Shown: one piece after another, positions 53,741 through 55,741 of the stretch
How positions within the stretch are numbered: position 1 is the first letter of the stretch
Layout of the letters: each line of letters starts with the position of its first letter
Origin: Lytechinus pictus
Lineage: Eukaryota
Direction of reading: 5' to 3'
Assembly (NCBI RefSeq): GCF_037042905.1
Contig: NC_087245.1
Span: 14,138,001 to 14,202,000 of the forward strand
Length of the DNA: 64,000 nt
The notes under the pieces: generated by a model
Seen by the model: only the letters and a program-made list of their open reading frames with translations
Told to the model about the DNA's origin: nothing
Database searches by the model: none
Position numbers and translations under genes: made by a program

Positions 53741-55313
53741 AATCAAGGTTTCTATCAATATAACCTTTGATGGTTAGACGGAATAGAGGTCCAGGTTTGA
53801 ACTTAGTTATCTCTCAGTAATTATGAATCAAATATGCTTCCACCTATTTAGTATTTGGATGTTGATATTTTGTCATTCTTCAAGCATACCTATTCATGGA
53901 AATCAACTCTTACCATGAAATGCAGTCAAATAACCACTCCCTCTATACTAGTTAATCAACAGAGGGCTCACTTTATGAATCCACTGCAGAGCCATTCAAT
54001 TTTCCTTCCTGACAACCCAAGGAACCTGCAATAACTGTTCATTTAGGGTATGTTACCTTCCCAGAATTGGAGTAATGCGATCCGAAGATCTCCAAACTTG
54101 ATTAATTGGCCAATGATAACACAGATCATAGTCAATATTGGCCTTGCTGTCCGGGAAGTCATGGTACAAGTGATATAGGAGGAATAGCTACGCAGCCAGT
54201 AAAGCCTGTCATGCATGTCAGTGCTCTGGCAGACCTTTGGTTATAATATCTCTGTGGGTTATCAAAGTTAAAACTAACTGTATATTAAAAAAATAAACTA
54301 TAATGTGATCATGGTGATTAAAGGCTCCAGTCATGGTTACATAATAAATTATCACAGTAGTAACATATTAATGTATATGATCATGAAATACCATCCTTCT
54401 TAATCATCTTTAAATGTAATTTTCCTTGTTCAAATTTTTAATCCCAGCACCCCCCCCCCCCCCACCCCATCTGAGATTGATGTTTGTACAATTTTACATT
54501 GCCTTTAAGAAAATGATAGATTTCTAATATACATGTCACATGATCATGAATTTCGATTTCTTCATTACTAATTTTGTTTTCTTTTTCGTTTTGATCGTGA
54601 TGACGTAGTCGTAGTGGCACCATTGCGCATTGCATAATTACAAAGTTCTGTACTGTAACAAAATTATTTTCTCCAGATTTTTCATCAATTTGTCTTCATT
54701 CTGAATGATAATGACTTTTATTGTTGGTTCTATCCTGTACCTTGCTCGTTCATCTCTTACCCACTCCTTAAGTCTATAATCATATTCTCCAGGTCTTTTT
54801 CTATCTCAACTACTTGTCAAGAGCATAATTCATATTAAGTGAATGCATAGAGTATGCATAGAATTAGACCGCATCACTATTTCTATGCATTTTTTTCTTT
54901 CTTGTGCATTGCTTCTTCTCCCCCACCTTGTCTTGTGTTTATTCCTTAATTCCTTCAACACAAACCCCTTTTTTCCCTCTTTCTTTTTCCCTCTTTCCAC
55001 TTGCAAACTCTCTATTCAGTTGTGCGTAGATATATAGATAGGGATCATATGCTGCATGTTTATGCGGGGTAATTTAAAATTCCATCCGTCATATCTCTTT
55101 TAAATCTATCTGCCTCCATTACTGTGAGGTCAGAGTAAAGCAAGGCTGGCAAAGCAGAGCAAAATCTCATCTTTCATTTTGTTTGCCATGAAAAGGTGGA
55201 TTTTTCTTTCTGGATTTTGACTCACAAGCTTTGTAGCTGCTACTACGGCTACTTCATCAAGAGACGTTTAGTAGTGGTTGAATAGTGGAGTGTGTGTGAA
55301 TAAGACGTGAACC

Positions 55314-55365
55314 ATGTCTGGATGTATGGAATGGTTCTGGCAAACCTGTTATACAGGAGAAGAAG
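55314..55365 (+). CDS. Candidate alternative first coding exon of a short Trio isoform (MSGCMEWFWQTCYTGEE+1 nt)
   Basis: accATGt start context, 17 open codons, then AAG|gtaaca donor in phase 1, the same phase as the intron after the SH3 exon. Inr-like TCAGTT at 55016. Confidence 0.55.
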
Positions 55366-55741
55366 GTAACACTTTTTATATTCATCTTGTATTTTAGTAC
55401 ATCAACAATCTGGGGTGGATTAATTAGATAAGTTGCATATTTGTGCAGTAACTTTCAATGGTTTTCTGTGTGTGTTCCCTTATTATGTTCAGTCGCAGTG
55501 CTCTGATTAATTCATATAATTATATCTTTATCCAGGCCTCTTACTTCAGCCCCCACAAATGGGAAAGTTATACATCTCTGTTTGTCTCTGTTGTATTTTA
55601 TATTTATGTATGATCTTTTTTGTATGATCTTTTTTTCTTAATTCTTGATAATTAATTATCAGATATTCCTCTTTTTACTGCTTTGATTATCTTGTTTTAC
55701 TTTAACCCCTTTCTCTGTATGTCTGTCTCTCTGTCTCCCTG

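Follow-up and report, generated by a model that had tools for sequence, protein, structure and literature searches.

The window, by which we mean the whole 64 kb stretch of DNA that was analysed, lies within a sea-urchin Trio/kalirin gene that runs on the plus strand. By tblastn, five exons correspond to the stretch from PH1 through the linker to SH3 in S. purpuratus kalirin (P0001) and in Holothuria Trio (P0206), and their order, with GEF1 PH exons followed by SH3-1, is orthologous to that of Trio/kalirin:

541..642, plus strand: Trio exon, PH1 domain (tblastn to P0001 and P0206; splice sites read)
2722..2803, plus strand: Trio exon, end of PH1 (tblastn; splice sites read)
3307..3394, plus strand: Trio exon, PH1-SH3 linker (tblastn; splice sites read)
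4895..5009, plus strand: Trio exon, PH1-SH3 linker (tblastn; splice sites read)
15910..16147, plus strand: SH3-1 exon with a phase-1 donor, opening the intron that holds the candidate (Pfam SH3; tblastn)

The SH3 exon matches Pfam SH3 and shares 87% identity with S. purpuratus kalirin P0001; an SH3 search among the protein representatives gave 157 matches, mainly single-exon fragments. Beyond this exon the window holds no match to the downstream parts of P0277, P0271 or P0206 at E<1 by tblastn, and since no later Trio exon lies within the window, the SH3-1 intron is longer than 47 kb and extends beyond the window end. Read through the SH3 donor (16148-16300), the frame continues as GMWHAVVVVV and then stops, with an AATAAA near 16290, and S. 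purpuratus P0001 (11 members) and P0023 likewise terminate soon after the SH3 domain; such SH3-terminated forms are either truncated, Kalirin-8-like isoforms whose tail is short and hydrophobic, or the result of gene models being split at the long intron. The window also carries ordinary microsatellites, the tetranucleotide arrays TCTA x56 (34116-34337) and AAAT x68 (13956-14229).

Inside the intron that follows SH3-1, 39 kb after 16147, lies a candidate exon that an earlier note on this DNA had proposed to be the internal promoter and first exon of a GEF2-type Trio isoform. Every feature it had described, namely the CT tract, the TCAGTT at 55016, the leader, the accATG, the peptide and the phase-1 donor, is present where it had been placed. 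In the list that follows, the twin motif at 34860-34872, the upstream ATGs and the conserved core are additions to that note:

34860..34872, plus strand: twin Inr-like motif behind another CT tract (extended motif TCAGTTGTG)
about 54871-55011, plus strand: CT-rich tract 5' of the putative start (82% C+T in its best 120 nt)
55005..55140, plus strand: putative core promoter and 5' leader, the best-conserved core (by conservation), with the Inr-like TCAGTT at 55016-55021
55016..55313, plus strand: putative 5' leader with short upstream ORFs (ATGs at 55049, 55056/55062 and 55188)
55314..55365, plus strand: coding part, MSGCMEWFWQTCYTGEE plus a phase-1 G, with Cys4, Cys12 and W7-F8-W9 (from the sequence)
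55366..55371, plus strand: weak 5' splice donor GTAACA (2.7 bits)

We take TCAGTT to resemble the initiator consensus. The leader is 298 nt long, and the accATG, with its A at 55314, opens the 17 codons of MSGCMEWFWQTCYTGEE, which are followed by the phase-1 G at 55365. Some 400 nt 5' of the putative start, at 54580-54635, there is a TGACGT motif with a palindrome-like TTGCGCAT site, both presumably similar to bZIP sites; none of the four runs aligned below reaches this far.

From the window sequence alone this candidate is not above chance. Scored with a rough matrix of approximate frequencies, its donor reaches 2.7 bits, a value equalled or bettered by 71 of the 2589 GT sites in the intron. 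Four of the host gene's own donors score 5.3-7.4, two further entries that were out of register by one base being left aside. The intron contains 39 ATG-open phase-1 frames within 1 bit of the candidate donor, and TCAGTT occurs 26 times on the plus strand of the window. It is conservation across species that raises the candidate above chance. Four of 24 listed runs were aligned to 54470-55700 at 80% likeness: the contigs X1 (organism A), X12 (organism B) and X18 (the closer organism C), and the raw RNA run X23 (organism A). Substitution counts given here are of listed differences only, with 29 difference rows and 9 gap rows outside the listing. Two contigs of organism B align, one at 55005-55318 (27 differences in 314 nt, with 18 gap letters) and one at 55323-55368 (4 differences in 46 nt, with zero gaps), so that the coding rate of B equals that of its leader; these four coding differences are unplaced, and the state of the cysteines is therefore visible in organism C only. 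The conserved block in B thus spans 55005-55368, beginning 11 nt before the Inr-like motif and finishing 3 nt after the last base of the exon. Both contigs continue as unalignable sequence, with a pyrimidine-rich flank on the 5' side and an intron-like stretch on the 3' side, and as such the limits of the block are set by alignment and not by coverage. Each end lies at most 5 nt from the limits in the earlier note, which were set blind to these data, and the naive chance of both ends matching within 5 nt is about 2e-4. The donor of B keeps GTA and scores 3.7 bits, with the alignment stopping directly after it, and the ATG context and GT donor are retained in both B and C.

In organism C the alignment covers 55005-55445, and the CT tract is not alignable, 158 other letters replacing 171. 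The earlier note had staked its reading on conservation of the peptide in relatives, and in C the coding part carries a single listed change in 52 nt, which is synonymous (at 55358), and no listed gap, with Cys4 and Cys12 unchanged. Listed substitutions in the core at 55005-55140 number 1 in 136 in C and 2 in 136 in B, the value for C being lower than that of its intron (14 in 159; Fisher p=0.001). RNA structure was considered as the content of this core and rejected, as its fold showed nothing notable (z=-1.0). Exact-pattern scans of metagenome contigs for the coding motif and for the core promoter gave 0 stretches each, a result that carries no weight because such contigs are not expected to contain sea-urchin DNA. 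A second short block, at 54729-54833, 5' of the CT tract, also aligns in C and is a possible proximal promoter element. The upstream ATGs preceding the coding ATG, which the earlier note had passed over, belong to short ORFs (55049-55220) that may possibly exert translational control. Those at 55049 and 55062 have no change among the listed differences, that at 55056 is altered in B, and that at 55188 is altered in X1, B and C and is therefore an allele of this window only. An extension of the coding frame to the 5' side was rejected: the window has stops in this frame at 55218, 55269 and 55308, and B and C have gaps, although X1, B and C each carry a change in the 55308 stop.

The exon to which the candidate could be joined was sought through protein models, with acorn-worm and sea-cucumber Trio as stepping stones to the GEF2 search. 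The best 120 of 1039 matches in the first GEF2 search were all long forms, and among the best 120 of 1777 matches in a search for short GEF2 proteins two were named as urchin models. These are P0277 (L. pictus kalirin-like X1, 1045 residues) and P0271 (Diadema, 1004 residues), both GEF2-only. The first 26 residues of P0277 and the first 12 of P0271 are unrelated, and both proteins then continue with ELEGG...KKWLTSP, which indicates that urchin annotations already use alternative N-termini at the ELEGG junction. In both of these two models the common downstream exon begins with Glu, as read from the proteins, the acceptor DNA lying outside the window, and a Glu-starting ELEGG exon fits the phase-1 G at 55365. 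The donor phase at 16147, at the end of the SH3 exon, is also 1, in agreement with the proposal that the candidate donor is compatible with the exon after SH3, and the phase agrees in vertebrate Trio as well (read-through P0008 compared with spliced P0281). P0277 and P0271 most likely come from the same locus and use the same acceptor exon as the candidate. Tblastn does not find their N-termini in the window, the best match having E 0.053 and falling on the opposite strand, neither N-terminus resembles the candidate peptide beyond chance, and neither model carries MSGCMEWFWQTCYTGEE; the candidate would therefore be a further start exon, and it may be present in an existing automatic annotation. 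The best matches of P0277 are TrioC 6D8Z (E 4.5e-106) and p63RhoGEF 2RGN (E 8.8e-97), and its alignment includes the PH extension ALQSPIxY. The downstream DH-PH is of the GEF2/Galpha-q type as judged on this related model, the exons of the candidate's own locus lying outside the window. Precomputed Pfam lists contain no kinase domain for either urchin model. The N-terminus of P0277 (1-26) has three Cys including a CC pair, that of P0271 (1-12) is polybasic with a net charge of +6 and a helical moment of 0.74, and in sequence each looks like a membrane cue.

We consider it very probable that 55314-55365 is a coding exon of one kind or another, and probable that 55016-55365 belongs to a set of several alternative first exons and yields a Duet-like GEF2-only isoform of Trio/kalirin. 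The limits of the conserved block, the retained ATG and donor, and the phase-matched urchin models all argue for the first exon proposed earlier, with a splice and a transcription start that are putative. As to function, the likeliest is a GEF2 first exon with an S-acylated aromatic membrane anchor, a putative role that we would place a little short of an even chance. The peptide MSGCMEWFWQTCYTGEE has a net charge of -3, two single Cys, no basic patch and no Gly2. Its description as amphipathic was unsupported, the helical moment of 0.30 being ordinary in comparison with shuffles (reached by 387 of 2000), and an amphipathic helix was rejected on this ground, as was N-myristoylation, since residue 2 is Ser. 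It contains an aromatic membrane-interface patch, W-F-W...Y, and has the best 10-residue interface score among six N-termini (-3.7 kcal/mol). The acidic charge, the lack of a Cys cluster and the ordinary moment make an aromatic patch with S-acylation likelier than an amphipathic basic helix. The same properties would suit a real GEF2-only first exon whose peptide is no lipid anchor and leaves the protein cytosolic or serves as a binding or regulatory tag, for which there is precedent in p63RhoGEF619 and GEFT, GEF2-only forms that can be cytosolic (PMC5105084). We regard such a first exon without an anchor as unlikely though well worth weighing, since two Cys and W-F-W...Y occur within 17 residues and are retained in organism C, and since among 312 background peptides of 10-25 residues drawn from the same intron just 2 contain at least two Cys and at least two Trp.

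Transcript data bear on whether the element is spliced. No junction from 55365 occurs in the four aligned runs (the X1, X12 and X18 contigs, of unknown library type, and the X23 RNA), and the candidate exon is accordingly a putative member of the Duet type. In X23, of which about a quarter (1934 million letters) was covered and for which the stretch offers no positive-control exon, there were 0 reads on the exon; four partial reads fell on the CT tract and continued into unrelated sequence, so that their origin is elsewhere. X1 (95-99% alike, and only guessed to be RNA) spans 54714-55546 and is unspliced across the donor, as is the X12 contig, and its bounded patch around the putative start is what either unspliced RNA or a promoter-enriched DNA library could give. 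A conserved non-coding element, either an enhancer or the promoter of an unspliced RNA, with the ORF and donor incidental, would be in keeping with aligned contigs that are all unspliced, with an X1 patch shaped like a bounded peak and with the absence of X23 reads from the exon. It would also be in keeping with the location of the best conservation in the non-coding 55005-55140, and with a coding part that in C is not significantly better conserved than the leader (p=0.31) or the intron (p=0.12). We nevertheless think this element improbable, because conservation in B stops 3 nt past the exon, at the GT donor, in the sole phase that fits the gene, and because the coding part has no listed gap in B or C compared with 18 gap letters in the leader of B, a difference that is not significant alone.

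The CT tract and TCAG at the candidate can also be read as a 3' splice site, a point absent from the earlier note. The same coding exon would then be internal, with an acceptor at TCAG|TT (55019/55020) and, further upstream, a first exon without coding sequence, for instance 34864-35442; the promoter claim alone would fall, with the peptide left as it is. An AG does stand immediately after the pyrimidine tract, and Drosophila trio M contains a 5'UTR intron (PMC11321036). The region of the second CT tract (34611-35442) offers possible donors at 35279, 35330, 35442 and 35574 with no ATG-led phase-1 frame. In contrast, all five real acceptors in the window are followed by a base other than T, the same TCAGTTGTG motif stands behind both CT tracts, and conservation extends for about 120 nt downstream of the motif, which is a better fit to a core promoter. 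The extended motif has 2 matches in the window where 0.01 are expected, for a pattern chosen after both sites had been seen, and the 34860 region is possibly a second internal promoter with a non-coding exon. An internal position of the coding exon thus seems to us quite doubtful. Very improbable indeed is a terminal exon of a GEF1-only Kalirin-8-like isoform, in which the SH3 exon would be spliced to 55020, for although the phase-1 frame from there is open for 17 codons, to a stop at 55070, and Kalirin-8 terminates after the first SH3 (PMC11630257), both listed changes in this frame (55043 in C, 55056 in B) are non-synonymous, AATAAA/ATTAAA is absent until 56059, and the end of conservation at the donor would be left unexplained.

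If, as we prefer, a GEF2-only isoform begins with the candidate as an alternative first exon, a TATA-less promoter consisting of the CT tract and the Inr would start transcription near 55018, and 55016-55365 would be spliced in phase 1 to the common ELEGG exon outside the window. The product would be a protein of about 1000 residues containing the linker, DH2-PH2 (GEF2) and the second SH3, and devoid of Sec14, the spectrin repeats and the Rac GEF1. In the muscle and neurons of worms, signalling from Galpha-q to RhoA passes through GEF2-only Trio forms, and such forms are also present in flies and mammals. Family knowledge and the alignment suggest that GEF2 would activate RhoA, with the PH extension mediating the action of Galpha-q. 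The W-F-W...Y patch may provide the first membrane affinity, with Cys4 and Cys12 putatively S-acylated, and the outcome would be a GEF held at the membrane next to Galpha-q, as p63RhoGEF is.

Anchoring of p63RhoGEF by N-terminal cysteines, which the earlier note had drawn on as background, is in agreement with PMC3722567, where the first 29 residues are enough to target the plasma membrane provided that their cysteines are present, and the PH extension binds Galpha-q. According to PMC5105084, p63RhoGEF stands alone among RhoA GEFs in its membrane anchoring by palmitoylation, and ARHGEF25 is restricted to vertebrates, having probably separated from Trio or kalirin. Like the product predicted for the candidate, p63RhoGEF580 (vertebrate ARHGEF25) has a short Cys-containing N-terminus, a KKWLTxP linker and a DH-PH of the Galpha-q type, the DH-PH of p63RhoGEF being 54% identical to the urchin GEF2. 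Unlike the candidate, which is an internal exon with two Cys, a net charge of -3 and putative palmitoylation, p63RhoGEF580 is the product of a separate vertebrate gene, has five Cys and a net charge of +7, and is palmitoylated by demonstration; its basic Cys-cluster character (CxC...CxCC, net positive) is not found in the candidate. Among 390 proteins, 23 have the Cys-rich p63RhoGEF N-terminus and 12 the TRIO alternative N-terminus, with a homologous linker following both. In the candidate and in p63RhoGEF alike, Cys-Tyr stands four residues ahead of the junction. The junction-anchored score between the two is equalled or exceeded in 14 of 1000 shuffles and by 5 of 418 peptides from the intron, this comparison being one of eight and picked after the motif was seen, and the local score is reached by 395 of 1000 shuffles. 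Because the local score is ordinary and the anchored comparison was post hoc and one of eight, the sequence likeness to the palmitoylated p63RhoGEF exon is a weak hint that falls short of establishing homology.

The same junction, the same phase and the position of Cys-Tyr do lead to a speculative reading, which we hold to be improbable, in which the p63RhoGEF design, a GEF specific to RhoA that is anchored by lipid and gated by Galpha-q, would predate vertebrate ARHGEF25 as an internal-promoter isoform of the ancestral deuterostome Trio. The urchin exon and the p63RhoGEF N-terminal exon would then be of common descent, and ARHGEF25 a duplicate of the internal unit. If this were true, the urchin intron would offer a choice of three or more start exons, each sending the same GEF2 to membranes by its own cue, aromatic-acyl for the candidate, di-cysteine for P0277 and polybasic for P0271. 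Were an echinoderm to have a conserved start exon rich in Cys and Trp, it would be a small, testable case for anchoring via Trio internal promoters outside the vertebrates, and would bear on the origin of ARHGEF25 from Trio/kalirin. With no anchor, the candidate would be one further alternative first exon in a place where such exons are expected.

The vertebrate TRIO short forms (P0278, P0282), C. elegans UNC-73E and Drosophila Trio M are GEF2-only products of a Trio locus, as is proposed for the candidate. P0278 and P0282 join the homologous downstream exon, and the TRIO alternative exon itself is unlike the candidate, the score between them being reached by 412 of 1000 shuffles. The literature passages covered describe no lipid anchor for the TRIO short forms, UNC-73E or Trio M, and in a literature search that left most subscription papers outside we found nothing on the candidate exon or on an acylated invertebrate Trio isoform. 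That loci of the Trio family make GEF2 isoforms from internal promoters, as the earlier note had assumed, is established in the kalirin, worm and fly literature. Worm GEF2-only isoforms arise from internal starts (bioRxiv 10.1101/2021.05.08.443256), and fly Trio M is a GEF2 product of the Trio locus that retains an SH3 domain (PMC11321036). Kalirin internal promoters are noted in PMC12198301, whose available passages do not cover the candidate exon, the Kalrn Duet promoter lies within the intron before exon 35 (PMC3541206), and human DUET has several starts (PMC11630257). KALRN DUET (Kal Duet9/Duet12) is like the candidate as interpreted here in that it has an internal start, before exon 35, and everything through GEF1 is missing (PMC3541206, PMC11630257). 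DUET transcripts have been demonstrated by RACE and long reads, whereas the urchin candidate is known from its DNA only, and it is by position and phase, with the Duet N-terminus outside the comparison, that the candidate resembles the Duet start exon.
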